Source: a virus (Duplodnaviria > Heunggongvirae > Uroviricota > Caudoviricetes). Taken from it: a DNA stretch of 64,000 nucleotides. The stretch is from positions 66,948-130,947 of IMG/VR virus record IMGVR_UViG_3300021979_000001; one strand, 5' to 3'. Both the position numbers and the translations under genes were made by a program. Shown piece after piece: positions 22,660 to 58,369 of the stretch (positions are counted from its first letter, which is position 1; each line of letters opens with the position of its first letter). Under the pieces are notes generated by a model. That model searched no databases. It was not told the DNA's origin and was given only the letters and a program-made list of their open reading frames with translations.

Positions 22660-23580
22660 ATGGAATTGTGTGAACTATTCAACAATAAAACCAAACTTAC
22701 CGAGTTTATTGAAACTCGATCATTATATGACATAGCATATAACGAATTTTTGATTGCTATCCATAAATCAGCAACTTATGTAAAAAATAATAATGCTACC
22801 GACAGTTATTGGAAAGGAACAGTTCTTGATTTCATTCGAAATGCAGCAAATAAAACAATGGAATCAATTAATGAGAACTTTACTAACCATACCGTTACTA
22901 TGTTAGTAAAAGTTGTTAAAAGTTCTTCTATTGCTTCTGGGGGGGCATTTTCTATCTATAGCGATAGCACTTCTGCAATTAATATAAACATACCAGCCTC
23001 TTTTTTTGACAATGGGGCAGATTGGTTTGTCAATTTAATTGAAAATGGTGGGGATATTACATTCGCTAAAAATGCAGCACGAGTGTTGACACATGAATAC
23101 ATTCACCTCATGCAGCAATTGCAAATAACAAATAATATTTCTGCAACATCCGAAGTCCCAAAATTTAAGCGTGCATTAAAAAGAATTGGTAGTCCTAAAA
23201 AAATGGATAAATGGAATTACGATTCTCTTAACCATATGAAAAATAACCCAACCGATTATTATACACCTGATGAACAACAGGATGCCAAGGCAACATTATA
23301 TTTGTCTGGAAAAGATGAAGTGGATGCACATGCCTTAAATTCGGCACAAGAAATGATCGATGTTTTTGGATCAGCAACCAATGCACTAACTTATTTGACG
23401 CCAGGGAGATCGAAAGACCTGTTTAAAGAAATGAAAAATATACCACATCTTTACCAATTTCTGTTTTATGTGGGTCATAAATCCGCAACAAAATCATCAA
23501 AAAAACTGTTCTTTAAACGATTATATGCACACCTCAAACATTACCAAGATGCGGAACAACAAAATAATACCCCGGTGTAA
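22660..23580 (+). CDS. Zincin-like metallopeptidase
   Basis: VLTHEYIHLMQ (HExxH) with downstream Y-LSGKDEVDAHA third-ligand motif; leader MELCELF...LTE. Confidence 0.7.
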   Translation: MELCELFNNKTKLTEFIETRSLYDIAYNEFLIAIHKSATYVKNNNATDSYWKGTVLDFIRNAANKTMESINENFTNHTVTMLVKVVKSSSIASGGAFSIYSDSTSAININIPASFFDNGADWFVNLIENGGDITFAKNAARVLTHEYIHLMQQLQITNNISATSEVPKFKRALKRIGSPKKMDKWNYDSLNHMKNNPTDYYTPDEQQDAKATLYLSGKDEVDAHALNSAQEMIDVFGSATNALTYLTPGRSKDLFKEMKNIPHLYQFLFYVGHKSATKSSKKLFFKRLYAHLKHYQDAEQQNNTPV

Positions 23581-23595
23581 TTTCCGGGGTATTAT
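23564..23595. terminator. Bidirectional terminator
   Basis: 12-bp stem ATAATACCCCGG / CCGGGGTATTAT between convergent genes. Confidence 0.75.
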
Positions 23596-23598
23596 CAT

Positions 23599-24657
23599 TT
23601 ACATCATGAAGCCGATGCACATGCCTAATATCTTATCTGGATTTGTTCTATAATCATCTTCCCAAACAACCATCACATCGTAACCCTTATCTTTTAATTC
23701 ATCGAGTTTCTTTTTATCATATTCCCATTTTTCACTTGCTATAAATTGTCTTTTACCTTTAATTATATCAGTTGGTTTATAATATTTTGGGTTTGCGTGC
23801 CAATAATCCCCATTGAACTCAATAATTTTTTTAGATTGCTCACATAGACAATCAACTTTATAGATAGACGATCCTCGAATTGATCTTTCTTCTTTACCAT
23901 ATAATAATTTTTTATTTACAGATTTTTCTACTTCTTCAAATAAAGTAAACGACATTTTAGAATATCCACTATACATCCCTGATTTTTGTAGCGAATCTAA
24001 CCATTTTTCCTGGCGTTGTGTAAACCGTTCTTGTCCTTCATCTTCGCCATACCGTTCGACAAATTTTTCCAACGTATTCGTTGTTTGTCGTTCCTTTACC
24101 AGTTTTATCGCATCATCTTCGGTATGACCTTTATTAATCCAATATTCTTTCTGATTAGGGCGAAGATGGTATGTTGGGTCTTTTTCTTTGCGTTCGCGCA
24201 ATGTTTCCATAGCGCGGTCAATTCGATCTGTGTTTTCAGCATGCCATTTGGCAGAACAAGAAAACCCACAAAAGGCCGGGTATGACCATTTCATTTGTTG
24301 AAATTTCACTGATTTATGACATTGTTTACAAAATGGTTCGGCTCTTGCGGAACCATATTTTTCATCATTATGCAATTCATGCCATTCATCTGGCATATAT
24401 TTTTCGCCATATTGTAAAAAATATTCTTCATTTGTCATGCCAAGGTCAGTAATAGACCTGGCAAGATATTTTCGGGCAGCAAACCAAGTTTTGATGATAG
24501 GATTGTAATATTTCTTTTCGGCAAAGTTATAACTGCCTTCGCGAAAATAATGACCCGGATGATGTTCTTCCCCATGCTTTCGAAAACCATCCGGGCCACC
24601 AGTTAACTGTTCTTTACAAAGATTGCATGTTACTTTTTGTCTTATTCGTGTAGTCAT
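23599..24657 (-). CDS. Free-standing Vsr/DUF559-like homing endonuclease
   Basis: KVDCL...IIEFNGDYWHANP...KGYDVMVVWEDD nuclease domain; CxxC zinc-binding segments; lies between the split intein halves. Confidence 0.8.
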   Translation of the reverse strand: MTTRIRQKVTCNLCKEQLTGGPDGFRKHGEEHHPGHYFREGSYNFAEKKYYNPIIKTWFAARKYLARSITDLGMTNEEYFLQYGEKYMPDEWHELHNDEKYGSARAEPFCKQCHKSVKFQQMKWSYPAFCGFSCSAKWHAENTDRIDRAMETLRERKEKDPTYHLRPNQKEYWINKGHTEDDAIKLVKERQTTNTLEKFVERYGEDEGQERFTQRQEKWLDSLQKSGMYSGYSKMSFTLFEEVEKSVNKKLLYGKEERSIRGSSIYKVDCLCEQSKKIIEFNGDYWHANPKYYKPTDIIKGKRQFIASEKWEYDKKKLDELKDKGYDVMVVWEDDYRTNPDKILGMCIGFMM

Positions 24658-24709
24658 AGATTCTTTTCCCTAGGAAGTTCTATGACTATTTATCAAGTTG
24701 GAAACTGTT

Positions 24710-25120
24710 CTACGAATTGATTGTTATCGACAATAACTTTTTCTCTAAATAGTTTACGATCCGGTCTCTAATCCGCAGTTTTACAAGGTTTCCAATTTGT
24801 TCAACATCACCATCTTTTATTATACAAGTTTCATGTGTAGAACATTTGCCCATTTGCCGCGATGTCATTCCAATACTAAAACGATTTTCGTGGAATGCTT
24901 CGAGCATTTCGTGCTGGAAAGGATATAACTTGAAAGGCAGGGCACCTTTCGTTGGATGCTGAATTTTCACAAAACGATCAAAAAAGAAAAATGGATCAAC
25001 CGTGCATTTTGCAAGTTCTTGTGCTTCTTTTTTTGTATATGTCGAAACCGTATTTGGGCGTTTTACTTCATCATCTGGAATCATGTTATTTGACATTATT
25101 TTTAAAGGGGTTTCCCCCAT
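24710..25120 (-). CDS. terL: Terminase large subunit, N-terminal half (N-extein + IntN)
   Basis: DPFFF..FVKIQHPTKG..PFKLYPFQ..SRQMGK, then Cys1 of the intein. Confidence 0.95.
   Translation of the reverse strand: MGETPLKIMSNNMIPDDEVKRPNTVSTYTKKEAQELAKCTVDPFFFFDRFVKIQHPTKGALPFKLYPFQHEMLEAFHENRFSIGMTSRQMGKCSTHETCIIKDGDVEQIGNLVKLRIRDRIVNYLEKKLLSITINS
24713..24844 (-). mobile_element. Split intein, N-terminal part (44 aa)
   Basis: CSTHETCIIKDGDVEQIGNL block A directly after RQMGK; ORF stops 44 codons later. Confidence 0.85.
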
Positions 25121-25190
25121 CCTTTGTGTAGGTTTACCTTATATTTATGCGTTAAGTGCCAACATAACGTATCATTTGGTTAAATCCTTT

Positions 25191-25358
25191 TATAAATATC
25201 CATAAGAAGTTGTAACCGCACTTAAATTACCCATCTTGTGGCATGATTTCTTAGACCTTTGCTCGGCCCCTCCTAACCGCGTAAAGATATACGAAGAAGG
25301 CATAGAACGATCACAGTCCAGGCTGACTGACCTAAGCCGACGTGATCGTTCTTTTTTT
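25191..25358 (+). ncRNA. Candidate late small RNA with anti-SD-like motif
   Basis: TATAAATA 25191-25198; CCTCCT 25269-25274; long hairpin 25304-25352 followed by T7. Confidence 0.35.
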
Positions 25359-25410
25359 GTTGACTATTGTTTTATAAACAGTATCGTGGTAGTGTTTTTA
25401 ACCAATAGGT

Positions 25411-25950: not shown

Positions 25951-25957
25951 TTTGGAC

Positions 25958-25993: not shown

Positions 25994-25996
25994 CGG

Positions 25997-26478: not shown

Positions 26479-27081
26479 TCAATAATTATTTGCTGAACGG
26501 TGTTTACACTCTGTCATTATTTTCTTTTTGTATTCTATATATTCTTTCAAATGATTTGACGAATATGCTTTCATCATTGCCAGGGATGATTGATCTTCAA
26601 TGATTGCCTCTAATCCCATATGCAATGGTGTCGGCCATTCGCCGTATTCGCACCAGACATATCCCTGATTTTCCCAATTTAGAATTGGGGTAAATTCAGT
26701 ATCGATTATCCCGAGAAACGTAGTATAACGAAATGTATCTTGTTTAAATACATACAATTGATGTAGATCGAGTTTACCAGAATACTTAGTTTCTTCGTAG
26801 GCTTCACGAATGCATGCTTTTTTTAAGTCTTCATTAGGGTCAACGGCCCCACCCCATGATCCCCATGTATTGGCAGCATCAACATGCGCCGAACGATGGG
26901 CGATCAAAAACCGCCCGGTATCCTGTGCCATAAATATAAGACCAGCACCTGCGCGGCCCCAGAAACCAGTTTCCTGTTGTGCCTTTGCGTGTTCTTCATC
27001 ATGATCAACATAATCACTATCATCATCATCATCGGCATTATATTGCAATGTTTGTTCAATTAATTCGATTAAATCTCTCAT
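26479..27081 (-). CDS. Nudix hydrolase with capsid-targeting-like leader
   Basis: Nudix box GGAVDPNEDLKKACIREAYEET; leader MRDLIELIE. Confidence 0.85.
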   Translation of the reverse strand: MRDLIELIEQTLQYNADDDDDSDYVDHDEEHAKAQQETGFWGRAGAGLIFMAQDTGRFLIAHRSAHVDAANTWGSWGGAVDPNEDLKKACIREAYEETKYSGKLDLHQLYVFKQDTFRYTTFLGIIDTEFTPILNWENQGYVWCEYGEWPTPLHMGLEAIIEDQSSLAMMKAYSSNHLKEYIEYKKKIMTECKHRSANNY

Positions 27082-28472
27082 TATTCTTTCCCTATAAAAT
27101 CAATAGCAATAGCCTTAATTCGGTCAAGGAAAGCGTTTGACGGGTTTTCCAGTGTGTCACCATCATTATCCCGCACATCAATCACACGGACATTTAACGA
27201 GGTTTTTCCACTATATTCTGCGGTTGCTGTTCCATGTTGGTTACCGATTTTCCATGGGAAATTATAAGTCCCAGAAGAATCGGCAATTTCGTCATCGAAA
27301 TCTTCTGTGATTGTTTCTAATTGTTTACGAGAAATAAACATTTCATCACCATCGGCCACGACGCCACCAAGACGCCGATGTATTGCGGGAACTTGTTTTT
27401 TGTTCGCAACATTTGGTAGATACGAATACAACCCGAGATATTCTGGATCAATTGTTTGTAACACCACCCGATACAAGTCCATACCCAATCCTTGATTACG
27501 GTATTTCCGGTCAATTTCCACGCTTTCAATATACATCCACTTAGACTTTTTTTTGCGCACGGGCCTTAGTGACATGTGACCAATCTGTTTATTATCATCG
27601 GTCCAAACAGTGTAGTAGTTTGGGTGATCAATGGTGTTGACCGCAATTTTAAAATTATCCTTTTCCCATACAATATGTTTTCCTTCCCACATAGAATATG
27701 AGTCGTCTGTTTCTTCCATCAACTCTGCGTATCTGGACATGACGAGTTGATCGTTTTCTGTATTATTTTTGATTTTTTTTAGAAATTCAGTGCCTTTAAA
27801 TCCTGGCAGATAAACTGATTTTCCCGAATACGCATCGCGCACTGTGACATTACCAAGGGAATCATCTTCGTATGCAAAGCGATGTTCATTTTGTTCGACC
27901 AACGTTGAAATATCATTTTCATTGTTACGTTTAAGTTTTTCTTGCAATGAATATAATAATGTTTGCACATCTTCTTCTGAAATTCCCATACGACCAGCGA
28001 TTTTTTGCTTTCCAGACAATGACATTTTAATACCTGAAACGATTTCGTCATCCGCAATACCGGCTCTTGTTAAGATATTATGTAGCTGTTCAATATCACC
28101 GCCATCTTCGTTTAATCGGCTTGGGTCATCAAGTGCATTATCGGCATAGTTTCCGGTATAACGCACCTTGTTTGATGATTTTGACGAGAAATCATATGCA
28201 CTAATTTTCATATCACGCTTTTTACGATCTGGTGATGATTTACGATAATCGAAATCTGCATTTTCGGACATATTACTGTGATATTCGACATACGTTTGCA
28301 ATTGCCGGGGAGACAAAGAATTTGTTGCTCTAGCCGCATTATTGATTGCAGTATTATGATCAAACCCATCATCAATAAGGTCTTGATAGATGCGGGCACC
28401 TGTTATTAGTGCCCGTCTATTAATCATTTGTTTAGCATGGGTTACAAAATCTTCTGATAATGCCATAATCAA
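27081..28472 (-). CDS. Multidomain probable virion protein with an embedded GNAT acetyltransferase
   Basis: IESVEIDRKYRNQGLGMDLY (GNAT motif A); modules separated by LNE/LVE/LME/ITE. Confidence 0.65.
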   Translation of the reverse strand: MIMALSEDFVTHAKQMINRRALITGARIYQDLIDDGFDHNTAINNAARATNSLSPRQLQTYVEYHSNMSENADFDYRKSSPDRKKRDMKISAYDFSSKSSNKVRYTGNYADNALDDPSRLNEDGGDIEQLHNILTRAGIADDEIVSGIKMSLSGKQKIAGRMGISEEDVQTLLYSLQEKLKRNNENDISTLVEQNEHRFAYEDDSLGNVTVRDAYSGKSVYLPGFKGTEFLKKIKNNTENDQLVMSRYAELMEETDDSYSMWEGKHIVWEKDNFKIAVNTIDHPNYYTVWTDDNKQIGHMSLRPVRKKKSKWMYIESVEIDRKYRNQGLGMDLYRVVLQTIDPEYLGLYSYLPNVANKKQVPAIHRRLGGVVADGDEMFISRKQLETITEDFDDEIADSSGTYNFPWKIGNQHGTATAEYSGKTSLNVRVIDVRDNDGDTLENPSNAFLDRIKAIAIDFIGKE

Positions 28473-29269
28473 CTATCCTTACGTAATGTATCGGGTTCGC
28501 GTTTCATGACAATTCTGCCACCATCTTTTTTTGTATAGACACGTTTATAGGTAATGCATTCATCGTCCAGGTTACCAATACGACTGGTATTAGTAAGATC
28601 GATTTCGTCATTAATCGGCTTACCATTACGACGATCTGATGCTGACCGTGGCGCATCTTTGATTTCGTCATTAAATGTGTCTTCTGGTATCGTATCGTCT
28701 TTTGGCATATCAATCCATTTAAACAGTGAATTTGGGGCATCAACTTTTTCGGTTTTGCCTTCCTGTTCAACTTGATACAGATAATCAAGAAACTTGGTTA
28801 CAAACTTATTTCCGTAATAATCCTCTGAATTTGTGTTTGGTGCTTCTGGATAATCCGGTTGTGTCAACAACGCCGAGCGCATCATTCCGTCATTTTTTGC
28901 ATCGGCATCCATTTCATTATTAGCAACAATTTGTTGCGACTGGCGCTCGATTGGATCATTTTCTGCCCGAACAACAATAAATTTTTCCGGGATACCAAGA
29001 GTATATTTTAATTCCTGTTGCAATACATATGCGCTTGCCGGTAATGTCACGACAATATCAATTGTATAAACTTCTGCATTTTTGACATCCGTAAAATCCA
29101 ATGGGTTTTCCTGAATGATCGTTTTCCGCACCCGTGACATTTCAACCGGGACATATTTCATGATGCATCGCTCGATTACATCAAGTTGATCTTCTTCTAG
29201 TGGAACAACCGTTTTAATACGATAGTTATACCGACGTTCGTTTTCTATTAAATAGTTTTTCAGACTCAT
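28469..29269 (-). CDS. Probable virion structural protein
   Basis: MSLKNYLIE start; CATAAATA at 29297-29304; YRIKT...PLDF..VKNAEV. Confidence 0.6.
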   Translation of the reverse strand: MSLKNYLIENERRYNYRIKTVVPLEEDQLDVIERCIMKYVPVEMSRVRKTIIQENPLDFTDVKNAEVYTIDIVVTLPASAYVLQQELKYTLGIPEKFIVVRAENDPIERQSQQIVANNEMDADAKNDGMMRSALLTQPDYPEAPNTNSEDYYGNKFVTKFLDYLYQVEQEGKTEKVDAPNSLFKWIDMPKDDTIPEDTFNDEIKDAPRSASDRRNGKPINDEIDLTNTSRIGNLDDECITYKRVYTKKDGGRIVMKREPDTLRKDS

Positions 29270-29332
29270 GACAACATCCATGTGTTTAGGTGTAACTATT
29301 TATGTTTTTATTATTTTGTCGGTATATTTACA

Positions 29333-30336: not shown

Positions 30337-30340
30337 TTTT

Positions 30341-31801: not shown

Positions 31802-31812
31802 AGTCTAAATCC

Positions 31813-39304: not shown

Positions 39305-39338
39305 GTCGTTTGTATAAAACATCCAGGAAGAAATTATT

Positions 39339-40511: not shown

Positions 40512-40533
40512 TAATTAACCAGGAATAACAGAC

Positions 40534-41715: not shown

Positions 41716-41742
41716 TTATAAAACTGTCAGTGGTATGATGTT

Positions 41743-42900: not shown

Positions 42901-42924
42901 ATTAACATATACCGAGAACCACCA

Positions 42925-44139: not shown

Positions 44140-44360
44140 ACATCGACGCCACTGCCCATAATTTGGTGCTGTGGGCGCGTGTCCGAAGTGCAACGCCATG
44201 GTGATAGCCATAACCAGGAACGAGTGGTCTATGGCCGTTAAATGCAATATATCTAACCACAACGATCCCATCTGAAAACACAGAAACAGTTGACAATGGA
44301 TTAAAAATAATCAAACCTATGTTGCCCCTGCAATCGAAAATTTGTAATTAGGTCCACCCC

Positions 44361-45575
44361 ATGCCCAATGATCTTTTAGAATATACACACGGTCTTCCAA
44401 TTTCAGTTAATGATTTGGTATGGGAGACACATAATAATAATAATTATTATTATTTAGAACTTGCACGCAACACGTATGTTATTTATGGCGATAACAAACA
44501 ACCAATCGGGGTATGTAATTTTGATATTAACACCGGTAAATTCAATTTTAAAATTGATCACAGTGATTATTTGAATATTGATATTTCTATTGTTGATACC
44601 GAAATTGCAAAAACCCCGGATTTTTCAATGGCACACATCATTGGATCATTTATAAGCATCTATCGGGAAATAAACAACAACGAGTCACCAAGATCGTATA
44701 ATACGTTTTTTTATATAATTTCAAAAGAATCGTCGTTGTCTCATATTATTGTTGAGGCAAAAACTTTTAACTTTGACACAAAACGTTTAACAACGTTTAT
44801 GAAAACGCATGCGGTCATTGATTATTTTAATGAATCCACACCACACTATGTATTTTATAATACCGCAACGCACGGCAAAAACAAATCTAATCACAAATCA
44901 TTTTCTAAGTGTGATAGTCATACCACTACCTATTTTTGGCGAAACTATTATTATGTTTATTCATTAGATGAACATAATAATCGTTATTTTAAAACATTAA
45001 AAGATGCGATTGATAGTATTGCAACGACGTGTTTAAAAGCGGATGACAGTTTGAAAATCAAACAAGTCACTGTAGCAAATAACTTTGTTACTAAAGTCTA
45101 TCACAACAAAAACATTATTCACAAGTTGATTCGATCATATATACGAAATGATATGCCTAATATTACAAACTGCATAGTTTATTTCAATAAATGTGATCAA
45201 TACAAAACACATTATGGGCAAAGTTCGGGCCAATACACCCGTGATGGACATGTTAATGACTATGATGAACATTTGAATGACTATGCTCATTTTGTAGCAA
45301 AATATATTAATGTTTTTACCCCTGGTGGTTTTGTTTGTTATATTGATTATGATTTACAAACCTTGGATATAACGAAACTCGTAAATGGAACCATTATCAA
45401 TCCAGAACAGAAATCGTTTGCTTTTGTTCCTTCTTACGAAGATATTGTTCTGCTTCAATTAACCGATGTTAAAATCATGAACCAGTGTCCAGTATCGGTC
45501 TTTTTCGACAAATTAACGGATAATCCGATGATCAATGATTATCTATCTAATAATTCACGTTATTTCAAACCGTAA
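44361..45575 (+). CDS. Array family A paralog 3
   Basis: IGVCNFDINTGKFNFKIDH..DISIVD; IISKESSLSHIIV. Confidence 0.75.
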   Translation: MPNDLLEYTHGLPISVNDLVWETHNNNNYYYLELARNTYVIYGDNKQPIGVCNFDINTGKFNFKIDHSDYLNIDISIVDTEIAKTPDFSMAHIIGSFISIYREINNNESPRSYNTFFYIISKESSLSHIIVEAKTFNFDTKRLTTFMKTHAVIDYFNESTPHYVFYNTATHGKNKSNHKSFSKCDSHTTTYFWRNYYYVYSLDEHNNRYFKTLKDAIDSIATTCLKADDSLKIKQVTVANNFVTKVYHNKNIIHKLIRSYIRNDMPNITNCIVYFNKCDQYKTHYGQSSGQYTRDGHVNDYDEHLNDYAHFVAKYINVFTPGGFVCYIDYDLQTLDITKLVNGTIINPEQKSFAFVPSYEDIVLLQLTDVKIMNQCPVSVFFDKLTDNPMINDYLSNNSRYFKP

Positions 45576-45578
45576 AGA

Positions 45579-46793
45579 TTGCTAGGTTCACCAATGTTAT
45601 CCAAAGACGATATTGTTAAAATTAATAATTTTTATTATATTCACTGCGATTTTCTATACGCAGATGATAAAAATCATATGGTGCGTGATCGGGCATTGTT
45701 TGAAACCAAGGCATACTGCATTCGGGCAAAATCATCATCCGAAACCAAACAAATGACGGTTTATCGCGTTGACAAAAAAACAAATGAAGTAACTGTTATC
45801 TTAACTGTGCTTGGTAAAGCAACCAATAATGGCAAACCAATAATCACCCTTTATTGTGACTTTAATAATTCCGAGAAAATTACAATTCCGTTTTTTAATA
45901 CCACCTTATTTACGTTAATGATTGGTGTTTACGTTATTTGGCCTAAACTCCAACGCGCTCGCGTCAATATGCGATTTTCAAAAAATGTTATTATTTTTTA
46001 TCGTTTGAATAAAAAAAATAACACAGAACATCATATCAAGAAAATAGTAGTTGAAAACTGTGATGCGTATACCTCTCTTTCGTGTGTATCCGCACTAGGT
46101 CATGTCCGCAACGATGACGATTTTAGTGGTAATATTACCCATATTCTAACCAATTTACTTACACGCATTAAATCATTCACCAAATATTATATTGCTGACC
46201 CGTATTCAAACGATATTCCTAAAAAACATAAAAATACATTAAACATTATTCGGTTGCTACACAATAATCATCACAATCACGCGCTGTCATTTATTGAGAA
46301 CAGGCAGTTGACGGTAAAAAAGGTTGAGATTGGGTTAGATGAAACGACAGATCATTTATCGACCGATGAATTAATTGCAGCATATCGGTCACAAATTTTA
46401 GCAGACAGTATCACACAGTTGATTGCACCACACTATCATGCAATCGGAAAATATGTGCTAAAAAATTTGAAATCGTTGGGTGCCCATGATTTGATATGTT
46501 GTTCTGTTGACCATATATTGCTTGATTATAACAATCCCGATTATGACGATATAATTAATCGCCTGGACGACCAAGGGATTACCGTCATTACAGACTATTC
46601 CGGTGCAATTTACACACATGTTCCAACTAACATGCAAAAAATATTTTTACAAATTCTAACCAACGCATTGCCGAATTGCACAAATATTGCCGAAATATTA
46701 TCCAATAACCAATGCATATCATGTCTTTTGACGGATGATATGTTGTCAGATGAAATGAAGCAATATATCGATACCAACATTCACCATAAATAA
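45579..46793 (+). CDS. Array family B paralog 3
   Basis: LLTRIKSFTKY; LTVKKVEIGL; IGKY; DMLSDEMKQYI. Confidence 0.75.
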   Translation: MLGSPMLSKDDIVKINNFYYIHCDFLYADDKNHMVRDRALFETKAYCIRAKSSSETKQMTVYRVDKKTNEVTVILTVLGKATNNGKPIITLYCDFNNSEKITIPFFNTTLFTLMIGVYVIWPKLQRARVNMRFSKNVIIFYRLNKKNNTEHHIKKIVVENCDAYTSLSCVSALGHVRNDDDFSGNITHILTNLLTRIKSFTKYYIADPYSNDIPKKHKNTLNIIRLLHNNHHNHALSFIENRQLTVKKVEIGLDETTDHLSTDELIAAYRSQILADSITQLIAPHYHAIGKYVLKNLKSLGAHDLICCSVDHILLDYNNPDYDDIINRLDDQGITVITDYSGAIYTHVPTNMQKIFLQILTNALPNCTNIAEILSNNQCISCLLTDDMLSDEMKQYIDTNIHHK

Positions 46794-48828: not shown

Positions 48829-49233
48829 TTATGGATGCAATTGCATGTTTGCAACAACAGGTTGACACTTATCAACCGGTCCAAAAACATACGCACATGT
48901 GACAATCGGAATGAGATGTGTCACTTCCCCATCCTTAACAGGATAGGTTGGGTCAAACACCTCTGAAAACAACAGACCGGCATCAACCGATTTCAGCTTA
49001 ACGGAAGAAAAATCCGAATATTTTGCAGCAAGGACAATCGTTGTCCCAAATGCACGATTATCCTTCCACTCTTTTAACCATTCTTCCATTTGCGTTGCCT
49101 GGCTATCGGAAATAATCCACTCCATTTTAGCCACAGCTTCATTTGCAGCATGCGCCGCCTGGGCCATTGCTTTACCTGGGTTCATGCTTTCCATGTCGGT
49201 CCGCATCAGAATATATAAACGAATGTCTTTCAT
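48829..49233 (-). CDS. Pth2-like peptidyl-tRNA hydrolase, paralog 1
   Basis: YILMRTDM..MNPGKAMAQAAHA, TIVL, T..VFGP. Confidence 0.75.
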   Translation of the reverse strand: MKDIRLYILMRTDMESMNPGKAMAQAAHAANEAVAKMEWIISDSQATQMEEWLKEWKDNRAFGTTIVLAAKYSDFSSVKLKSVDAGLLFSEVFDPTYPVKDGEVTHLIPIVTCAYVFGPVDKCQPVVANMQLHP

Positions 49234-49299: not shown

Positions 49300-50118
49300 T
49301 CAATCAAAAGTTTCATGTATATTGTCACTATCAACGTTAAACGTAGTGTTTTTTACCGTTTTGATTTGTCCAGGATAGAATGCCACCCAAATATCAAATC
49401 TCGAACCTTTATCATTTGCTGGCACAAAAATTCCGTCATACCCTAAAGACTTCGTTAATATTTTAAAAATATTTCGGTCTCTGCCAGCCGAATTAAATAT
49501 ATCATGAACCAAATCAATATCAGTATTATTATAATCATATAGCATATTTGTTGCCGTGTTTAAGACAGTTTGATACCCTAAATCGTTTTCATCACCATAA
49601 TTACTTAAAAAGAATTCATCTTCTCGTGCGACTGCATTAATCAATTTCTTTAAATTCGCTTTGGTAATCGTTTTTCGATTCCAAGATAACGGTTTCTGTA
49701 TTGATAAGTAAACCGAATATATAGTATCCCCAAACATTTTGGATTTGTCTATATCCGGTGTAAAATAAAAACCATTACCTTCCATTGTTCCAGTCTGACC
49801 AATGAATTGATCATCAAATACATCAAAAACTTTTTCACTACCATGATAAACGACTAATGGATTACCATTTTTATCCACAACTTTACTATCTCTAAACCAT
49901 GCCTTGAAGGCAGGATTATCGGTAATATCCGAGGTATCATCTTCAATGATTGATTGAGAACGTCTAATGACCAACGGTTTTTGTTCGTTATCTTCTACTG
50001 ATCCAGTCAGCGGTTTTGCAATAGAGGCGACACTTCCCGCAGATGTGCCTCCATCCGTTGAATCTTCACTTAAATCATAATTATTATTAGTTACGGAAAC
50101 AATATCATAATATCTCAT
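49300..50118 (-). CDS. ADP-ribosyltransferase-fold protein (ART-PolyVal-like)
   Basis: FKAWFRDSKVVD..G.PLVVYHG, GFYFT, VYLSIQKPL, GYDGI, VAFYPGQIK. Confidence 0.75.
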   Translation of the reverse strand: MRYYDIVSVTNNNYDLSEDSTDGGTSAGSVASIAKPLTGSVEDNEQKPLVIRRSQSIIEDDTSDITDNPAFKAWFRDSKVVDKNGNPLVVYHGSEKVFDVFDDQFIGQTGTMEGNGFYFTPDIDKSKMFGDTIYSVYLSIQKPLSWNRKTITKANLKKLINAVAREDEFFLSNYGDENDLGYQTVLNTATNMLYDYNNTDIDLVHDIFNSAGRDRNIFKILTKSLGYDGIFVPANDKGSRFDIWVAFYPGQIKTVKNTTFNVDSDNIHETFD

Positions 50119-50148
50119 GTGTTTGCCTTAATATATTAATAATCATAT

Positions 50149-51672
50149 TTATGTTAACGAAAATGATTTTTCATATTGCAATCGAACGGCATTATTTGAT
50201 TTTATTGCTGGTTCACCTTTAGGCCAGGGTCTTTCCAGAACATATTTGGCATAATCAAGTGATGCTCTAGCAGACGTTGCAATTGCATCTTCGCCCATTG
50301 GAAACGGACCATGCAAGCATGATGCTGCATAAACAAATGATGCCATAGGGTCAGTCGCAATAACAGGTTCGGCGGCAGGCCACGGCCCTTTGATAACCAT
50401 TTGTGCATATCTTGCTGTCTGTTTGGGATGTCTTAATATGATTTCTTCTGCCTCGGGCCAACGTGTTTTAAATCCCAACGCCTTTTCCATATATGACATT
50501 ATAAAATCAATATTTTCCGATGCCAGAATTGTTGGTTCTCCCAATATGAACCGACCTTTTAACGTATCATTGGCATAAGATACCGATGCATCTGCGTTCG
50601 TTGCTATATATTTTTCAAGATCAGGTCTTGGGCCAATTTTTTTAATAAGCAATATCAAAAATTTGGGCGACTTTTTCAATACATTAACGATTTTTTTCAT
50701 CATAACACTATCTACGGTTATGCTGTCACGCAACGCAAAATTATAAGCAAGTTCCGGTCTAGATAATATAAATGGAATGGCATCATCCGCAACCGGAACC
50801 GTATCATCCGACAATAATGCTATGTTCCCAACATCATTCAGTTTTTTTACAGTCAGTGTCCCTGCATATCTGGATATTTCATAATTTTTATACGCCTGAT
50901 CTGCCTGATAATATGTCTGCCCTTCGACATACAAATAATCATTTGCAACCGTAATAAAATCTCGAACCGATTTCAAAAATTCGGGGGCATCCATACCAAA
51001 TTTTTCAGTTGAAATTGAAAATACAACATTTGAAAATCCGTTTTTGTCTTTGGTAGTATTAATCAAAGGTTTAATACCCACCCTGGCGGTTGGATGATTA
51101 ATATTCAGATCATCTGCCGTAATCTGATATGCCGTTAATTCACCCAACATATATTCGTCAAACCGTTTCATGCCTTGTGTTTCATCATCCAAATTCATAC
51201 AAGATGTCCAACCACGGTCTGTTGATCTTCCCATATAATCATATGGATGACGTGTAATAACAGTAAGGATATTTGTAGATTTAGATGTAGAACGAATGAT
51301 GTCTTCGTTGAAATTTTTCAACAAATTGGTATTAATCCGACTTAAAAGTTTACCAATTTTTATTAACCGATTATTTTTATCTTTTGCTATGCCTTTGATA
51401 TAGTCAACAATGTCATATCCGTGTTTTGATAACTCGGTTTCAACTTTCTTTAAAGTATCACTTTGCGAAACATCTCTATCAACAATGTCAAGTTTTTTAT
51501 ATAAACGATACCCATTTTTTGACATTTTCCAACCATGTTTCTCCATATGTTTAAACAATTCGGCAAACCGATCTACATTGTCGCATAGCCCATATGTTCT
51601 CATAGTGTTCTTGTATTTTGATAAGGGTATCGATTCCACTATTCTTGACCCAATAATATCTGATATTCTCAT
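50149..51672 (-). CDS. Probable virion-packaged protein with C-terminal 25-aa repeats
   Basis: Leader MRISDII..IVE; TRHPYD..GWTSCM domain; about 5 repeats Y-A-x3-(L/I)-K-G-(R/P)-(W/F)-P-x-(A/G)-E. Confidence 0.65.
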   Translation of the reverse strand: MRISDIIGSRIVESIPLSKYKNTMRTYGLCDNVDRFAELFKHMEKHGWKMSKNGYRLYKKLDIVDRDVSQSDTLKKVETELSKHGYDIVDYIKGIAKDKNNRLIKIGKLLSRINTNLLKNFNEDIIRSTSKSTNILTVITRHPYDYMGRSTDRGWTSCMNLDDETQGMKRFDEYMLGELTAYQITADDLNINHPTARVGIKPLINTTKDKNGFSNVVFSISTEKFGMDAPEFLKSVRDFITVANDYLYVEGQTYYQADQAYKNYEISRYAGTLTVKKLNDVGNIALLSDDTVPVADDAIPFILSRPELAYNFALRDSITVDSVMMKKIVNVLKKSPKFLILLIKKIGPRPDLEKYIATNADASVSYANDTLKGRFILGEPTILASENIDFIMSYMEKALGFKTRWPEAEEIILRHPKQTARYAQMVIKGPWPAAEPVIATDPMASFVYAASCLHGPFPMGEDAIATSARASLDYAKYVLERPWPKGEPAIKSNNAVRLQYEKSFSLT

Positions 51673-52178
51673 ATTGTTATATTCTCTATTATTTTGGCAC
51701 TACCGCACAAATATTCATAACGGGAACCTTCGGATAATTCTGCATTCCAGTAGTTTTTGGCATATTGAATTATTTGATGTTTATTTTCGTATATGGTTTC
51801 ATCACCTAATATATTACTTTCACATATCATGTAAATCTCACCATACCATTTAATATTACATTTATGTATATTGGTTAATGGTTCCACCACGTATACGTAA
51901 TCAGTATACCCGCCCATATAATCAATATCGGAAATCGTTGATGCCAAAAACACGGCATTCATCCGCGAAATTGCATTTTGTGGCCGATATTTTTCCAAAT
52001 ATTGTTCAACCATATTAATTGCATCTTGTTCAGTGTCATCCAAAAAAGGATCATTTGCCCGAACATAACCGTATTGTTGAGGGGAAAGAATTGTGTTTAA
52101 GGGCAATTTGTTTCGCGAACCATGATAATAATTAATCCCGGTTTCGGCTTCCCGCACAATGTTAATGATATTTCTCAC
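51669..52178 (-). CDS. ADP-ribosyltransferase-fold protein
   Basis: YYHGS, SRMNAVFLA, YVYVVEP, YEYL; leader MRNIINIVRE. Confidence 0.55.
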   Translation of the reverse strand: MRNIINIVREAETGINYYHGSRNKLPLNTILSPQQYGYVRANDPFLDDTEQDAINMVEQYLEKYRPQNAISRMNAVFLASTISDIDYMGGYTDYVYVVEPLTNIHKCNIKWYGEIYMICESNILGDETIYENKHQIIQYAKNYWNAELSEGSRYEYLCGSAKIIENITI

Positions 52179-52963
52179 CCTATGACCAACCCATATCCCT
52201 CGTGGCTATCGATCAACGTTTTAATTTCGAGTTCCAGCCGTTCAAATTCGGCAAGGGCTTCCTGTTTTAACGCGTCCCCATTCATCGATATTCCACCTTG
52301 TGGACCCGCCACACTACTGAATTTAGACCTGGCTTCACCCATGATCTGTTTACATACTGCAATTGTGTAATCCCGCATCCAGGGGCGAGAATAAACATCA
52401 TTTAACAGTATTTCCTCCGGGCGGGCATTATATACATGCAAACAAATAGTTTCCTGGTGCATAAACCGACGATGTAAAGTAAGTTTTTTCGTTCCCGTGT
52501 CCCAAGTGTATTGTATATCACGACCAAACATTCTGCCGACCATTTCCTGAAATCCCATTGCCAGATCATATGTCGCAAGAAAACCAGCCCCAGAATTACC
52601 AAGCTGTCCAGGATTTTGAATCATGTAGATATTATTTGTAAACGAAAGGCTAAAAGGATCGATAGATGCACCGGTTCCAGCACCGGTTCCACCCATTGTT
52701 CTACGGTATATTGATCTAACTTCTTGCACCTCATTTGGTAACACATATGATTGCACATCTGGTTGGGTATCTAAAAATACAAAACTTTCCTCTATCGAAT
52801 TACCCGAACGCTGACGATAACGCGACAACGCTTTGTCCAGCGCAATGTCGTAATGTTCAGGGTCAAGTTCAAGATCAATTATGCCGCTACCTAACAGCAG
52901 TCGGACTTCTTTGAGTATCTGGGCACGAGCGGGTGACATCACAATTTTCCTCACATATGACAT
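52175..52963 (-). CDS. gp13: Neck protein (gp13-like)
   Basis: IIDLELDPEHYD..L..A..YRQR, YVLP.EV, W.RDY..A..K...GEARSKF, GGISMNG..L. Confidence 0.85.
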   Translation of the reverse strand: MSYVRKIVMSPARAQILKEVRLLLGSGIIDLELDPEHYDIALDKALSRYRQRSGNSIEESFVFLDTQPDVQSYVLPNEVQEVRSIYRRTMGGTGAGTGASIDPFSLSFTNNIYMIQNPGQLGNSGAGFLATYDLAMGFQEMVGRMFGRDIQYTWDTGTKKLTLHRRFMHQETICLHVYNARPEEILLNDVYSRPWMRDYTIAVCKQIMGEARSKFSSVAGPQGGISMNGDALKQEALAEFERLELEIKTLIDSHEGYGLVIG

Positions 52964-53051
52964 TTAATATATTTATGGTTTTTGGTTGCCAATATCGAAA
53001 ATTATGGTAGTGTCGTCATCGTATAGAATAAAACTCATGGGGGAAGTTATC

Positions 53052-53492: not shown

Positions 53493-53866
53493 CTGAAAAT
53501 AATCAGGAATTAAAAATGTGGTTGGTATGTCGAACAGACATTGATATGCCGCGACCAAAAGCTATGGGACAAGCCGGTCATGGCTTTAGTTTGTGTCTTG
53601 TTGCCGCAATGAATAAGAATCCAAATCTCGTGCATGAATATAACACAAATTCGTGCCCAAAAATTGTGATCGGTGCTAAAAATATTGCGGCACTGGAACG
53701 CGCACACCGTGAATGTGTGGATGCCGGGTTATTTGTATCGCCAATTATCATTGATGCAGCAAGAACACATTTTACCGAACCTACCGCAACGGTTTTTGCG
53801 GTTGGGCCATGCTATCGGAATGAACTTCCTACTTTCGTTCAACGCGCACAGCTATTGAAACAATGA
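53489..53866 (+). CDS. Pth2-like peptidyl-tRNA hydrolase, paralog 2
   Basis: KMWLVCRTDI.MPRPKAMGQAGH, PKIVI, DAARTHF, TVFAVGP. Confidence 0.85.
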   Translation: MTENNQELKMWLVCRTDIDMPRPKAMGQAGHGFSLCLVAAMNKNPNLVHEYNTNSCPKIVIGAKNIAALERAHRECVDAGLFVSPIIIDAARTHFTEPTATVFAVGPCYRNELPTFVQRAQLLKQ

Positions 53867-53978: not shown

Positions 53979-54443
53979 ATGGCAACATACCAGTTTGAAT
54001 CTTTTCTAAAATGTCCGATATATCATGGTTTTGGAAAATCGACTAGCAAACGAAAAATTTTCAATAATTTTACGGTGGACACGTTTGAAACTGCATACAA
54101 ACGGTATCTGCGTTGTCGGGATGCTGCGAAATGGGAAGCTAATCTGATTTCAATTTCGAATGAAAACAAATTATTATATTCGACCGTATCTGGTATTAAT
54201 AATAAAGAAATCGACATTAAACCATTCATCAATAAACATTATATTACCGATGAAATTGCATTTTCTATGCTTAAAATGGAAATGGCGTATGCAGTCAAAT
54301 GTATAAAAGGATATAATATTAAAATGTTTAAATTATATGATTTAAATGATAATTTAATCGGATATTGTAATAATGTTTCCCCATTAAAACCCGAAGTTAT
54401 ATCGCCATACTTAATTGGCGTCAATTATCATATTACTAATTGA
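53979..54443 (+). CDS. Small-array paralog 1
   Basis: YQF..FETAY..AFSMLKMEMAYAVK..FKLYD..IGYC. Confidence 0.75.
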   Translation: MATYQFESFLKCPIYHGFGKSTSKRKIFNNFTVDTFETAYKRYLRCRDAAKWEANLISISNENKLLYSTVSGINNKEIDIKPFINKHYITDEIAFSMLKMEMAYAVKCIKGYNIKMFKLYDLNDNLIGYCNNVSPLKPEVISPYLIGVNYHITN

Positions 54444-54464
54444 CCCGAAATAAGGAGTTATAAT

Positions 54465-54962
54465 ATGGCAAACGAAACGATCAAACAATATCAGTTTGAA
54501 TATAAACCATGTCCCAATAGATTTACTATTGGTGACATTATTAATAACATTCATAATACATCAGTTTTTGAGACAACCAATTTCAAAGATGCATATATGT
54601 ATTATATCAAAAAAACAATCCCATTAGTATCAGAATTAATTAACATATATATGATTGAAAATGATGAAAAAACATTACTATATAATTATTTAACCGGGAT
54701 TTTAGTGTCAGATGATAATGTTATTAAACATATAAATTATTCTAACAATTTAATATCATTTGATCAATCATTTTCTATACTTAAATTGGAAATGGGATAC
54801 GCGATTAAATCAATATGCAATGTCGCAACAGTATTTCATTTATATGATAATGAACATAATATAATTGGTGCATGTGCGAAAATTGATTCTGATAATTTAG
54901 ATATACGAATTGATAGAAATAAAAATTATATAATTATTAATGGGCATTTATACAGGGGTTAA
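54465..54962 (+). CDS. Small-array paralog 2
   Basis: YQF..FKDAY..SFSILKLEMGYAIK..FHLYD..IGAC. Confidence 0.75.
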   Translation: MANETIKQYQFEYKPCPNRFTIGDIINNIHNTSVFETTNFKDAYMYYIKKTIPLVSELINIYMIENDEKTLLYNYLTGILVSDDNVIKHINYSNNLISFDQSFSILKLEMGYAIKSICNVATVFHLYDNEHNIIGACAKIDSDNLDIRIDRNKNYIIINGHLYRG

Positions 54963-54970
54963 ACGTAGAA

Positions 54971-55480
54971 ATGGCAGAATATCAATTCTTATGGAAAACA
55001 ACCGGTTATGATGATGCTTCACGCAGAATTATTAGTAATTATATTTCGGTGTCAAAGGATTGTGACTTTATTACCGCATGTGAAAAATTTAACAATAAAT
55101 GCAAAAGACATAACCCTAATCCGTATGACGCTACTAAACAATTACAATTGATTTATAGTATCACCGATAATACGTCTACATGTGAAACAATTTATGATCA
55201 CAACCTTGGTTTTTATGACTGTGCGGAAAGTCGTGATTATACAAAAAACATTGTCCCGAATGACCGATATATCACACCATCCGTCGCATTCACTATGTTA
55301 AAATTAGGCGGATATTATGCAGTAAAAGATACGGCAATATGTCTGCCAACTTTTTTTGGTATTTTTGACCTGGATAATATTTATGTAGGTGCAACGGAAC
55401 GTATTGAATATAATAACACAATAAAATGGAAAGAGTATAATAGTATTATAATTAGTATCAATCATCTTACTGATAGCTAA
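54971..55480 (+). CDS. Small-array paralog 3
   Basis: YQF..FITAC..AFTMLKLGGYYAVK..FGIFD..VGAT. Confidence 0.75.
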   Translation: MAEYQFLWKTTGYDDASRRIISNYISVSKDCDFITACEKFNNKCKRHNPNPYDATKQLQLIYSITDNTSTCETIYDHNLGFYDCAESRDYTKNIVPNDRYITPSVAFTMLKLGGYYAVKDTAICLPTFFGIFDLDNIYVGATERIEYNNTIKWKEYNSIIISINHLTDS

Positions 55481-55481
55481 A

Positions 55482-55994
55482 GTGAGAATCGTTGAAATGA
55501 CAATTAACACTTATACATTTTGTTATGAAACCACCTTTTATAGAAAATCAAAAGGATGGATTGAAAGCAAGATTACTCGTGAATACAAAACGGTTATCGA
55601 ATCAGATAACTTCACGGATGCATATTATGGTTTTCTACATCGTCGAAAATATAAATCACCCGCAATATTAAAGCAGGTTATACTTAATACATCAGATAAC
55701 ATTCAAATACAATTATACCATAAATTTTCAGGATTTTCAAATTACGACAATTCTGTATTTGAATATATTGACGGATATAAACATTTATTACCGTTAGATA
55801 ATGTATTCGTTATGCTTAAGTTAAATATGGCATATGCGGTAAAACATATAACCGAGATAATGACGTTTTTTGAAATATATGACCCACAAGGACATCTTAT
55901 CGGAACCTGTTACAATATTAATTTCAAAAAAAATATACAATATTGTTATTATCCAAATCGAAATCTACTAGTTCTTAATAGCGATTTACTCTAA
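55482..55994 (+). CDS. Small-array paralog 4
   Basis: YTF..FTDAY..VFVMLKLNMAYAVK..FEIYD..IGTC. Confidence 0.75.
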   Translation: MRIVEMTINTYTFCYETTFYRKSKGWIESKITREYKTVIESDNFTDAYYGFLHRRKYKSPAILKQVILNTSDNIQIQLYHKFSGFSNYDNSVFEYIDGYKHLLPLDNVFVMLKLNMAYAVKHITEIMTFFEIYDPQGHLIGTCYNINFKKNIQYCYYPNRNLLVLNSDLL

Positions 55995-56010
55995 TAATAG
56001 TGGTTAAACG

Positions 56011-56520
56011 ATGACAAGATATAAATTCGCATGGAAAACAATTTATATAAACGACAGTTACATTAATACAACATCACGTGTTTTCACAAGAATATACGAT
56101 GCTGATTATTTGGATGCGGCTTTTAGTAAATATGAAAATTCATGTTTAAAAAAAGAAAATAAAAGAACATTACTTTATATCTATATTATGTCTGATAATT
56201 ATGGTGGTCCAGGCAAAACAATATATGATTTAAATACTGGGTTTACCGATTGTATTGATTTCGTCATGAAATACTTTATTGATTCCAATAATTATATTTC
56301 ACCGTTACAAGCATTTACCATGCTAAAGATGGGTGCAACAATTGCACGTAAGAATACCGATTCATATAAGCCAACGGTATTTGATCTATTTGATACTAAA
56401 CATAATTATGTCGGGTCTACTGAACGTATTGAATATCAAAACTCGATAAAGTGGTATAGATCAATATCTCACATGGTAACAGACACATCTATTTTGTATA
56501 ATATAAAAGAACATGATTGA
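56011..56520 (+). CDS. Small-array paralog 5
   Basis: YKF..LDAAF..AFTMLKMGATIARK..FDLFD..VGST. Confidence 0.75.
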   Translation: MTRYKFAWKTIYINDSYINTTSRVFTRIYDADYLDAAFSKYENSCLKKENKRTLLYIYIMSDNYGGPGKTIYDLNTGFTDCIDFVMKYFIDSNNYISPLQAFTMLKMGATIARKNTDSYKPTVFDLFDTKHNYVGSTERIEYQNSIKWYRSISHMVTDTSILYNIKEHD

Positions 56521-56547
56521 ATAAATACTCTTAAATATTGGAGTATA

Positions 56548-57609
56548 TTGGCAATGCCACGATTATCATTATGGAATAGTGGAAAGAAAGGCAACGATTA
56601 TAAATTTTTTGACCGAACTATTTCTGAATTTTTTTATGTTTCAGGAACGGCATGCTATATTCATAAGTTTCTTGGCGTTCATGACCAGTCCGACGAACAA
56701 GATCAAGAACCAAATGTCACGAGTATTCAAGACATCGTATTGCTCGAAAATAGAGATCGAAAATATAGTGACCAGGTATATGAACTCCCTGGCATCTACA
56801 ATGTATCTGACAGTGATTTTGACCTGCGTCAAATGGGTTTCTTCCTGACCGGGGATACCATCTACATCGAGTTCCACCTTAATGACATGATCAATCTATT
56901 AGGCCGCAAATTGATTGCAGGTGACGTTATTGAATTGCCGCATTTGCGCGATGATACTGGTTTGGATATGAGTAAACCAGCGATTCCCAAATTTTATGTG
57001 GTTGATGAAGCAACCCGTGCATCGGATGGTTATTCAACAACCTGGTTCCCTCATATCTGGCGGGTTAAAGTTATCCCAATGACCGGCGCACAAGAATATC
57101 AAGACATCCTCGATAAACAAGCAACTGATCCATTCGGTATAACACAAAGTGGTCCTATCGGTGACTTAATGACCACCTTGGGCACTGAACTGGGAATTAA
57201 CGAAGCGATTATTGAAGAAGCGAAAACGCACGTAGCTGCCAGAAATTTTGATAATCGGCAGTTTTATATCCTACTTGATTTTGATGGTGGGCCACCATGG
57301 GTTCACACCGGTGATGGTATTCCACCTAATGGGGCAGAATTGCTTGGCTCGGGCACTAAATATCCAGATGATGCTGTTGAGGGAGATTATTTTTTACGAA
57401 CCGATTGGGCACCACATACTCTTTTTCAAAAGACGGGCAGCAAATGGAAAATAGTTGAACAAGATTATCGACGAGGACATTGGTCTTCTGCACATCGTCT
57501 ATTGGAAGATTTTATCAATCAGAACGGAACGTCAACATTTTCCGATGGATCAACTGCACCAACAAAACAAATGTTGTCACAAGCACTTAAACCGAGAGCG
57601 GATTTTTAA
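56548..57609 (+). CDS. gp14: Neck protein (gp14-like head-tail connector)
   Basis: IQDIVLLENRDRKY, GIYNV, GFFL..DTIYIEFH, GRK..AGDVIELPH; AATAAATA at 56520. Confidence 0.75.
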   Translation: MAMPRLSLWNSGKKGNDYKFFDRTISEFFYVSGTACYIHKFLGVHDQSDEQDQEPNVTSIQDIVLLENRDRKYSDQVYELPGIYNVSDSDFDLRQMGFFLTGDTIYIEFHLNDMINLLGRKLIAGDVIELPHLRDDTGLDMSKPAIPKFYVVDEATRASDGYSTTWFPHIWRVKVIPMTGAQEYQDILDKQATDPFGITQSGPIGDLMTTLGTELGINEAIIEEAKTHVAARNFDNRQFYILLDFDGGPPWVHTGDGIPPNGAELLGSGTKYPDDAVEGDYFLRTDWAPHTLFQKTGSKWKIVEQDYRRGHWSSAHRLLEDFINQNGTSTFSDGSTAPTKQMLSQALKPRADF

Positions 57610-57610
57610 T

Positions 57611-58369
57611 ATGAGAAATTTTATCGATATTATAAATGAATATCACGAATGGGAAGAATGGGATAGCTATGAACATAAAGACATAAAAACCCCTTCATTT
57701 CCTGACCCAACAACAAACCCAAATTTTGTTAGATGGTTTGGTAAATCAATCGTTGTTGATCATAAAACAAAAAAACCATTAGTGGTATTTCGTGGAGAAC
57801 ATGGTGATACAAATGGGAATTTCTTATCACGCAGATCAAGTTTAACCTTTAGTTCGTTTCATTCAGCAAATTCATATAGCTTATCACCAAATGATCGTGA
57901 TGATTTATATGCATCCAACCCACATGTATTTCCATGTTATTTAAAAATCGAAAAGCCATTTATTGTGCAATACACTGATCCATATGTCGAATTTAGCGAT
58001 ATGTTGCGAATTGCACCGTTAACGAAAGTGATTGAATTAGCAATCAGATTTGAAGATGGCATTTATAACACCGGTAATTGGATGGATAATTACAGTGATG
58101 ATTATGATTCCGTAGAAGAATTGCTCACACAAAAACCAGAAGAAATCAAAAAACTATACACGTTAGCTTTTGAAATATTGGATGACGCGGAATGTGTTTC
58201 ATTAATTAAACAGGCCGGGTATGATGGGGCAATACATGGGGGATTTGGTGTAGAACATGATGCAGAGTATCGAGTTTTTGATATTCGGCATGTTAAATCA
58301 ATCTTTAATAATGGTTCATTTAATCCATCATCAACAAATATTTCAGAACAACAAAAAGGCGGGGATTAA
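57611..58369 (+). CDS. ADP-ribosyltransferase-fold protein (ART-PolyVal-like, R-S-E type)
   Basis: FVRWFGKS.VVD...PLVVFRG, LTFSS, CYLKIEKP, GYDG, EYRVF; start ATG 57611 (MRNFIDIINE), not 57455. Confidence 0.7.
   Translation: MRNFIDIINEYHEWEEWDSYEHKDIKTPSFPDPTTNPNFVRWFGKSIVVDHKTKKPLVVFRGEHGDTNGNFLSRRSSLTFSSFHSANSYSLSPNDRDDLYASNPHVFPCYLKIEKPFIVQYTDPYVEFSDMLRIAPLTKVIELAIRFEDGIYNTGNWMDNYSDDYDSVEELLTQKPEEIKKLYTLAFEILDDAECVSLIKQAGYDGAIHGGFGVEHDAEYRVFDIRHVKSIFNNGSFNPSSTNISEQQKGGD

Follow-up and report, generated by a model that had tools for sequence, protein, structure and literature searches.

The internal head proteins of the T-even phages share only a capsid-targeting signal, which loads them onto the scaffolding core, and this signal has been used to find new internal-protein genes as well as to package foreign proteins (PMC3012670, PMC12373910). 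According to a passage of a further source, ADP-ribosyltransferase (ART) and GNAT domains occur in so-called polyvalent proteins that are thought to be injected (PMC7824862; Iyer et al. 2017, reference 100 there), and two papers on giant phages of the phiKZ/SPN3US type describe many head proteins that travel with the packaged genome, undergo processing by the prohead protease and are then ejected (PMC5694885, PMC10052503). Here we describe a short leader peptide at the N-termini of otherwise unrelated proteins of an uncultured phage (Caudoviricetes; IMG/VR record IMGVR_UViG_3300021979_000001, 457,165 bp, 38% G+C). The stretch analysed, referred to as the window, comprises 64,000 nucleotides (bases 66948-130947 of this record). 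We propose that the leader is the form which the T4 capsid-targeting sequence (CTS) takes in this phage lineage, and estimate the probability of the full mechanism at about 65%.

Near-identity DNA searches of the phage collection returned no match, and relatives were reached via protein search. By this measure the nearest cultured ones are Agrobacterium phage Atu_ph07, Sinorhizobium phage Phosso and Pseudomonas phage PA5oct; the tail sheath protein is 52% identical to that of Atu_ph07. The span of the window in which the leader genes are found also holds the late structural genes for the tail sheath, two tube-like proteins, head closure, the head-tail adaptor and virion proteins.

Two leader families on unrelated proteins

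A first-pass annotation of the window had picked out seven N-termini as capsid-targeting-like, all of which translate as written at their coordinates. Five of them belong to one family (type A), that of the gene starting at 22660 belongs to a second (type B), and the gene starting at 29269 has a T4-like start. Type A has the consensus M-R-x-x-[I/S]-[D/N]-I-[I/V]-x-E, with the extended form MSDIRKFINIV; in the whole genome about 23 genes have it, and their bodies are of at least nine unrelated kinds. N-termini were listed from gene calls for the full 457-kb genome, which are rough. Among these, 16 genes start with MR-x-x-(x)-[DNE]-[IL]-[IVF], and a weight matrix together with a hidden Markov model (HMM) adds variants having the word 3-5 residues further in (MSDIRKFINIV, MTGIRKWINIITE, MSDMRQLIDLVE). 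Type B follows M-x-[L/I]-x-[D/E]-L-F-E (e.g. MELAELFFE, MELCELF, MLLADLFE); the pattern M-x(2-4)-[DEH]-L-F was found at the start of 10 genes, with about one expected. The genome-wide prediction that had been suggested works as well, the leader picking out about 25 more genes beyond the window.

Across the six frames of the genome there are ten matches to the strict word R-x-[FWILYH]-[IS]-[DNE]-I-[IVC]; seven of them fall in open frames, and each of these seven is among the first few residues of a long open reading frame (ORF). With the leader HMM, 21 N-termini scored at least 10.4 bits, the maximum among 2280 internal control windows being 8.7 bits, and 18 of the 23 type-A leaders still exceeded every control window in leave-one-out runs. 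The bodies behind the leaders are mutually unrelated by BLAST and Pfam (ART-PolyVal, DUF3990, NUDIX, Amidoligase_2 and others without a domain). Altogether the tagged set includes at least seven ART-PolyVal proteins, DUF3990-like, Nudix, Amidoligase_2 and zincin-like proteins, one with a weak GNAT match and many without any domain; they are 120-604 aa long with one or two domains apiece.

The Arg of the leader is encoded by AGA, CGA, CGC, CGT and CGG, and the DNA upstream of the leader genes shows no relatedness beyond a promoter motif, so that selection acts on the peptide and not on a DNA cassette. A mobile cassette consisting of promoter and leader was rejected on account of this unrelated upstream DNA. 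One might also regard the similarity as chance, or as a signal-free consequence of A+T-rich codons being preferred behind the start codon of late genes with high expression, in a genome of 38% G+C whose conserved N, D, I and E residues have A+T-rich codons. This is very improbable, as Arg at position 2 is kept via five different codons, the motif is shifted inward by 3-5 residues in the MSDIRKFINIV forms, it is absent from the 2280 internal windows, and it recurs in a phage contig of 59% G+C. The latter was found with an exact degenerate DNA pattern for MRxFINIVxE, which gave three hits across IMG/VR, a number near chance level, two of them looking real. In the 59% G+C contig (IMGVR_UViG_3300009177_000068, 983-3003; about 8% of a genome) three neighbouring tagged genes start with MTMRKYLDILKE, MRDLINLVE and MREFINIVTE, the last one behind TATAAATA. 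The two real-looking contigs are fragments of 8% and 15% of a genome, and a protease search in them was uninformative.

Outside the window, five leader-tagged genes of mixed types A and B form a run at genome positions 137635-144706 (minus strand). The type-B gene at 137635 and the type-A gene at 50149-51672 of the window both match gp394 of Atu_ph07 and look like paralogues, and judging from this pair the two leader types look interchangeable on one body. A tagged ART gene directly follows the capsid protein gene. Directly after this ART gene lie two paralogues (genome 219620-221059, minus strand) starting with MTNNDIISYLNN and MSNMNDIISYLNS, a word that resembles the leader core without its Arg and Glu.

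Leader-bearing proteins in virions of Atu_ph07

The particle proteome of Atu_ph07, determined by electrospray ionisation tandem mass spectrometry (ESI-MS/MS), comprises 140 of 714 gene products (19.6%; Supplementary Table S5 of PMC6102473); N-terminal tags, cleavage and internal proteins are not mentioned in that paper. We ran the leader HMM, trained on the present genome only, on all ATG starts of Atu_ph07, mapped the matches to annotated genes and selected those with at least 8.5 bits at the annotated N-terminus. All nine genes selected (gp594, gp206, gp487, gp46, gp672, gp43, gp561, gp482 and gp33) are in the virion table (hypergeometric P 3.5e-7), as are all five that lie outside three structural clusters (P 1.9e-5, given a background of 11.6% in that part of the genome). 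The first-pass annotation had stated that its idea would fall if the motif were equally frequent on non-virion genes; in Atu_ph07, the one relative for which such data exist, it is not, every selected product being virion-associated compared with 19.6% of all products.

Orthologues of tagged proteins were detected in these particles as well, namely gp394 (orthologue of 50149-51672, 18 peptides, starting MQYTDLIE), the amidoligase orthologue gp196 (14 peptides, MRWQDISSKKLTE) and gp113 (orthologue of 28469-29269, 11 peptides). The annotated start of gp113 seems to be too far downstream, and an upstream in-frame ATG gives MKTLQDYLTE. Among the Atu_ph07 leaders are MSDLRKFINILNE of gp594, MRLIDLLE of gp561 and gp672, and M[RK]W.QL[TN]E of gp53-gp63. 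Together with gp408 and gp381, the gp53-gp63 array starts with M[RK]W.Q[LD][TNS]E and is completely represented in the virion table; this pattern was spotted after seeing the table and is not part of the statistical test. With its start MKWQDLSE, gp381 is the one ART-PolyVal-like protein of Atu_ph07, by a weak match. Pfam found no domain in the gp53-gp63 family, and no claim is made from its ART-like look (YRGM word). Furthermore, Atu_ph07 has an unannotated ORF with the leader MRLFDLFEK, and gp544, which contains the leader-like word SLRNFMNIIKE at about residue 101-113, reaches its highest abundance in the lowest gel band, as would a protein that is cut internally.

Mass spectrometry shows association with particles only, and the tag may therefore bring proteins to the particle without placing them in the DNA-filled interior, i.e. 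as structural or decoration components or as attached assembly factors. Many tagged proteins indeed have no recognisable enzyme domain, the tagged-like protein 28469-29269 is a conserved virion protein encoded beside neck genes, and Atu_ph07 bears hair-like fibres on head and tail. We nevertheless consider such a role unlikely, since those bodies that can be identified are soluble enzymes (ART-clan, Nudix, amidoligase) and not fibre or capsid-decoration domains, the tag agrees in form and in cut site with the signal of the T4 internal proteins, and T4 packages the ADP-ribosyltransferase Alt likewise, according to its annotation.

A different kind of relative was found for the tagged gene at genome positions 328280-329392, which has orthologues in KVP40-type relatives of T4. 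KVP40.0290 has a CATAAATA promoter and a leader of its own, MKNLKSFMEE...LNE, and homology between the proteins begins at the residue after the leader Glu. To judge by this alignment, the comparison shows that the tag goes with the phage lineage and not with the cargo.

Prohead protease, putative cleavage sites and late-promoter-like motifs

The head module of the phage has the T4 order (portal, small protein, acidic protein, protease, scaffold, gp23-like capsid protein). Its prohead protease (genome 224563-225186) belongs to Peptidase_S77 (PF03420, E 4e-26); it shares 34% identity with T4 gp21, and the catalytic His (..DHP) and Ser (GVSSRG) motifs are retained. In the capsid protein, V-M-E and L-M-E sites surround the position that corresponds in the alignment to the L-T-E cut of T4, and the scaffold contains 5.6 [LIV]-x-E per 100 aa, the genome mean being 1.3. 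Of the leaders, 31 of 32 carry an [ILV]-x-E ending at residues 5-20, compared with 18.8% of other proteins.

The motif NATAAATA may be compared with the T4 late promoter, TATAAATA. Near gene starts it occurs 104 times, in 74 cases at 30-49 nt upstream of the start, and the genes behind it include those for sheath, tube, portal and protease. Among the type-A genes, 14 of 22 are preceded by it, compared with 87 of 591 others (odds ratio 10, P 5e-7). The link of the leader genes to a late motif had also been claimed for the window, and there all seven either have NATAAATA or sit downstream in an operon headed by it (Table 1). Enzymes of this kind that are made late would benefit the beginning of the next infection only by being carried in the particle.

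Packaging in the present phage is predicted, and short amphipathic N-termini can serve many ends. The shared N-terminus could accordingly have a role apart from the particle, such as docking to a chaperone or AAA+ unfoldase, controlled degradation, or keeping the enzymes inactive until they are processed in the cytoplasm; several AAA+ chaperones are encoded by jumbo phages of this group (PMC7824862). Such a role would leave unexplained that nine out of nine model-selected Atu_ph07 proteins are present in particles, that the leader genes are linked to late-promoter-like motifs, and that tagged genes are placed right after genes for the capsid, the adaptor and virion proteins, and we regard it as quite unlikely.

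Tagged genes of the window and their surroundings

The features of the window are compiled in Table 1. Of the functions assigned in the first-pass annotation, that of the Nudix hydrolase was confirmed (PF00293, E 6e-11), the box G-x5-E-x7-R-E-x2-E-E being intact at residues 78-97. The label zincin for 22660-23580 is plausible, as the protein has HEYIH at residue 145 and its structural neighbours, albeit weak ones, include zinc peptidases. Three genes had been labelled ART. For ART-PolyVal (PF18760), whose Pfam gathering cut-off is 31.2 bits, 49300-50118 scores 78.2 bits and thus holds its label, and 57611-58369 lies just below the cut-off with 29.8 bits (phrog_8642, E 1.5e-22); five more genes elsewhere in the genome exceed the cut-off. 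The third label, for 51669-52178, was not confirmed. This protein has no Pfam hit, its hhalign comparison with the ART-PolyVal paralogues of the genome was negative, the YYHGS word alone being aligned, and its single-sequence AlphaFold model (pLDDT 35) was unusable. Its language-model features lie near DUF2441 (0.94), a family placed in the ART clan by Pfam (PMC7955679), which is the sole remaining support, and ART is only a lead here. The same hhalign comparison was marginal (49% probability) for the gene at genome positions 358257-358637.

The protein 28469-29269 matches a 'virion structural protein' family, and its orthologues gp113 of Atu_ph07 and gp282 of PA5oct were detected in virions by ESI-MS/MS, for gp282 according to its flag.

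Table 1. Leader-tagged genes, late-promoter-like motifs and neighbouring genes in the window, with side loci in Atu_ph07 (NC_042013.1) given in the coordinates of that record. For each motif, the operon headed by it is indicated.
Feature	Coordinates	Strand	Remarks
Late-promoter-like motif CATAAATA	22624..22631	+	36 nt before the start at 22660; heads the zincin-like gene
Zincin-like protein, 306 aa	22660..23580	+	Type-B leader MELCELF...KLTE (22660-22704); between the split terminase halves
Nudix hydrolase, 200 aa	26479..27081	-	Type-A leader MRDLIELIE (27055-27081), then acidic linker
GNAT acetyltransferase-domain protein, 461 aa	27081..28466	-	In the late operon of the 29269 gene; starts MALSE, neither type-A nor type-B leader
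Conserved virion protein, 266 aa	28469..29269	-	N-terminus MSLKNYLIE (29243-29269), layout of the T4 signal
Late-promoter-like motif CATAAATA	29297..29304	-	Heads virion protein (29269) > GNAT protein (28466) > Nudix (27081)
ART-PolyVal ADP-ribosyltransferase-family protein, 272 aa	49300..50118	-	Type-A leader MRYYDIV...DLSE (50065-50118), acidic linker
Late-promoter-like motif CATAAATA	50146..50153	-	35 nt before the start at 50118; heads the ART gene
507-aa protein	50149..51672	-	Type-A leader MRISDIIGSRIVE (51634-51672); orthologue Atu_ph07 gp394
169-aa protein	51669..52178	-	Type-A leader MRNIINIVRE (52149-52178); GTG start overlaps the adaptor stop
Head-tail adaptor (Ad2-type)	52175..52939	-	First gene of the operon with two leader-tagged genes
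Late-promoter-like motif CATAAATA	52970..52977	-	Heads adaptor > 52178 gene > 51672 gene
Late-promoter-like motif AATAAATA	56520..56527	+	Heads virion protein (56554) > ART (57611)
Virion structural protein, 351 aa	56554..57609	+	phrog_11591, E 7e-98; directly upstream of the tagged ART
ART-PolyVal-like protein, 252 aa	57611..58369	+	Type-A leader MRNFIDIINE (57611-57640); ATG one base past the upstream stop
Atu_ph07 gp113	84393-85142
Atu_ph07 unannotated leader ORF	315248-315526
Atu_ph07 gp544	390965-391801

Some further observations concern the surroundings of these genes. The terminase large-subunit gene is in two pieces (window 20789-25120), a 136-aa N part and a 590-aa C part, between which lie an HNH endonuclease gene and the tagged zincin-like gene, with a late-promoter-like motif before each. 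Eight tandem ORFs of about 350-400 aa with 29-33% G+C occupy 37167-46793 (plus strand), and the two tested are without PHROG match. At 53979-56520 (plus strand) there are five ORFs in tandem, each of about 165 aa and resembling one another at the start (M..YQF); the one tested, 53979-54443, is without PHROG match, too. Two paralogues of phrog_1866 lie on either side of the operon with the tagged genes (48829-49233, minus strand, and 53516-53866, plus strand), the latter also matching a hydrolase family weakly.

Proposed packaging and delivery

The idea that the leader serves packaging draws support from the architecture similar to the T4 CTS, the cleavage-type ending of the leaders, the gp21-type protease, the sites in capsid protein and scaffold, the late-promoter link and the virion association of tag-bearing proteins in Atu_ph07. 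We infer that the tagged proteins dock to the scaffold, are cleaved, come to lie inside the head and are injected, in the following course. Late in infection, about 30 proteins would be made with the tag (at least seven ART-PolyVal proteins, DUF3990/DUF2441-like, Nudix, amidoligase and zincin-like proteins, and many unknowns). The tag would dock them onto the scaffolding core, by which they would become enclosed in the prohead. The gp21-type prohead protease would then cut after the [I/L/V]-x-E ending the tag, as with the capsid protein and the scaffold, and the mature enzymes would remain in the head until they pass into the host together with the DNA. There, the NAD-using and nucleotide-directed ones could act ahead of any phage gene expression. 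That the tag brings the proteins into the particle is probable, and its removal by the protease is somewhat more probable than its retention; for the injection of the cargo we see an even chance.

Several points weigh against this mechanism. The phage is uncultured, and the virion association of tagged proteins comes from Atu_ph07. The Atu_ph07 particles were purified with polyethylene glycol (PEG), and their list also includes a few replication and metabolic proteins, so that virion-associated does not prove a location inside the head. The leaders of Atu_ph07 differ in detail (MRLIDLLE, M[RK]W.QL.E). PA5oct has few similar starts; its ESI-MS/MS flags, present for gp246 and gp333 and absent for gp213 and the Nudix protein gp322, carry little weight, ribonucleotide reductase and thymidylate synthase being flagged as well. 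In the present genome, five of the 23 type-A members were marginal in the leave-one-out runs, and the Glu at position 9-10 is missing in some leaders (MREFINILIAI, MREHINIVKG, MSDIRKFINIVSG). The enrichment of [ILV]-x-E endings in the leaders is partly circular because the Glu helped to recognise the first members. Finally, the match to a gp55-like late sigma factor is weak (E 8e-4).

Extending the proposal, the tag may provide a complete, sequence-readable list of about 30 delivered proteins in jumbo phages like Atu_ph07, a polyvalent-type repertoire being split here into tagged enzymes. The ART arrays, Nudix and amidoligase might then amount to a NAD/nucleotide-centred first strike on host defence or transcription before the phage genes are read. 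This wider view is tentative, and we would sooner doubt it than rely on it.

The non-DNA payload of giant phages is largely unknown, because most of them are uncultured. If the proposal is true, a tag readable from the sequence and backed by the published proteome of a cultured relative would let the delivered proteins be listed from metagenomic genomes. It would flag many enzymes of the ADP-ribosyltransferase type as candidate factors of early host takeover or counter-defence, would account for about a hundred 'hypothetical' proteins in Atu_ph07 particles, and would offer a candidate tag with which proteins of choice could be loaded into heads of phages of this group in laboratory strains.

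Comparison with known systems

The CTS of the T4 internal proteins IPI, IPII and IPIII (MKTYQEFIAE, removed by gp21) comprises about ten residues at the extreme N-terminus, as in the phage described here. The T4 sequences were read from the T4 record, which gives MKTYQEFIAE for IPII and IPIII and MELITELFDE for Alt. T4 CTS and type A are alike in having Met, a basic residue 2, a hydrophobic pair and x-Glu on unrelated proteins, probably late ones in the present phage, and both phages have a protease of the gp21 family; the tagged genes here are preceded by motifs resembling the T4 late promoter. The consensus is different here, with MR-x-x-I-[DN]-I-[IV]-x-E and M-x-L-x-[DE]-L-F-E. Furthermore, the bearers number about 30, compared with three or four in T4, and the cargo is dominated by enzymes, whereas that of T4 consists of small restriction inhibitors. 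The genome of 457 kb is only distantly related to T4, and the system is predicted here from sequence.

T4 Alt, a packaged ADP-ribosyltransferase according to its annotation, uses NAD, is made late and is delivered with the DNA, as is proposed for the transferases of the present phage, and its start resembles type B. The transferases found here belong to other families of the ART clan (ART-PolyVal, DUF3990-like) and are present in at least seven copies. With KVP40.0290, the T4-type Vibrio phage KVP40 has an orthologue of one tagged protein that has a late promoter and a T4-like leader, this leader being KVP40's own.

To our knowledge, phages of the phiKZ/SPN3US type have no common short N-terminal tag, and the ejection proteins of these phages belong to another phage group and another protease lineage. 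The ART-PolyVal domain is common to the present phage and to the polyvalent proteins of phages and conjugative elements, both being predicted to be delivered with the DNA, and the PHROG profiles matched by the ART domains found here have 1664 and 2900 positions and thus represent very large phage proteins. Instead of one giant multidomain polypeptide, the present phage encodes separate small proteins, each individually tagged. Compared with T4, what is new here is that the consensus differs, that the cargo is far larger and rich in enzymes, and that the lineage is a distant one of jumbo phages, the CTS principle itself being known.

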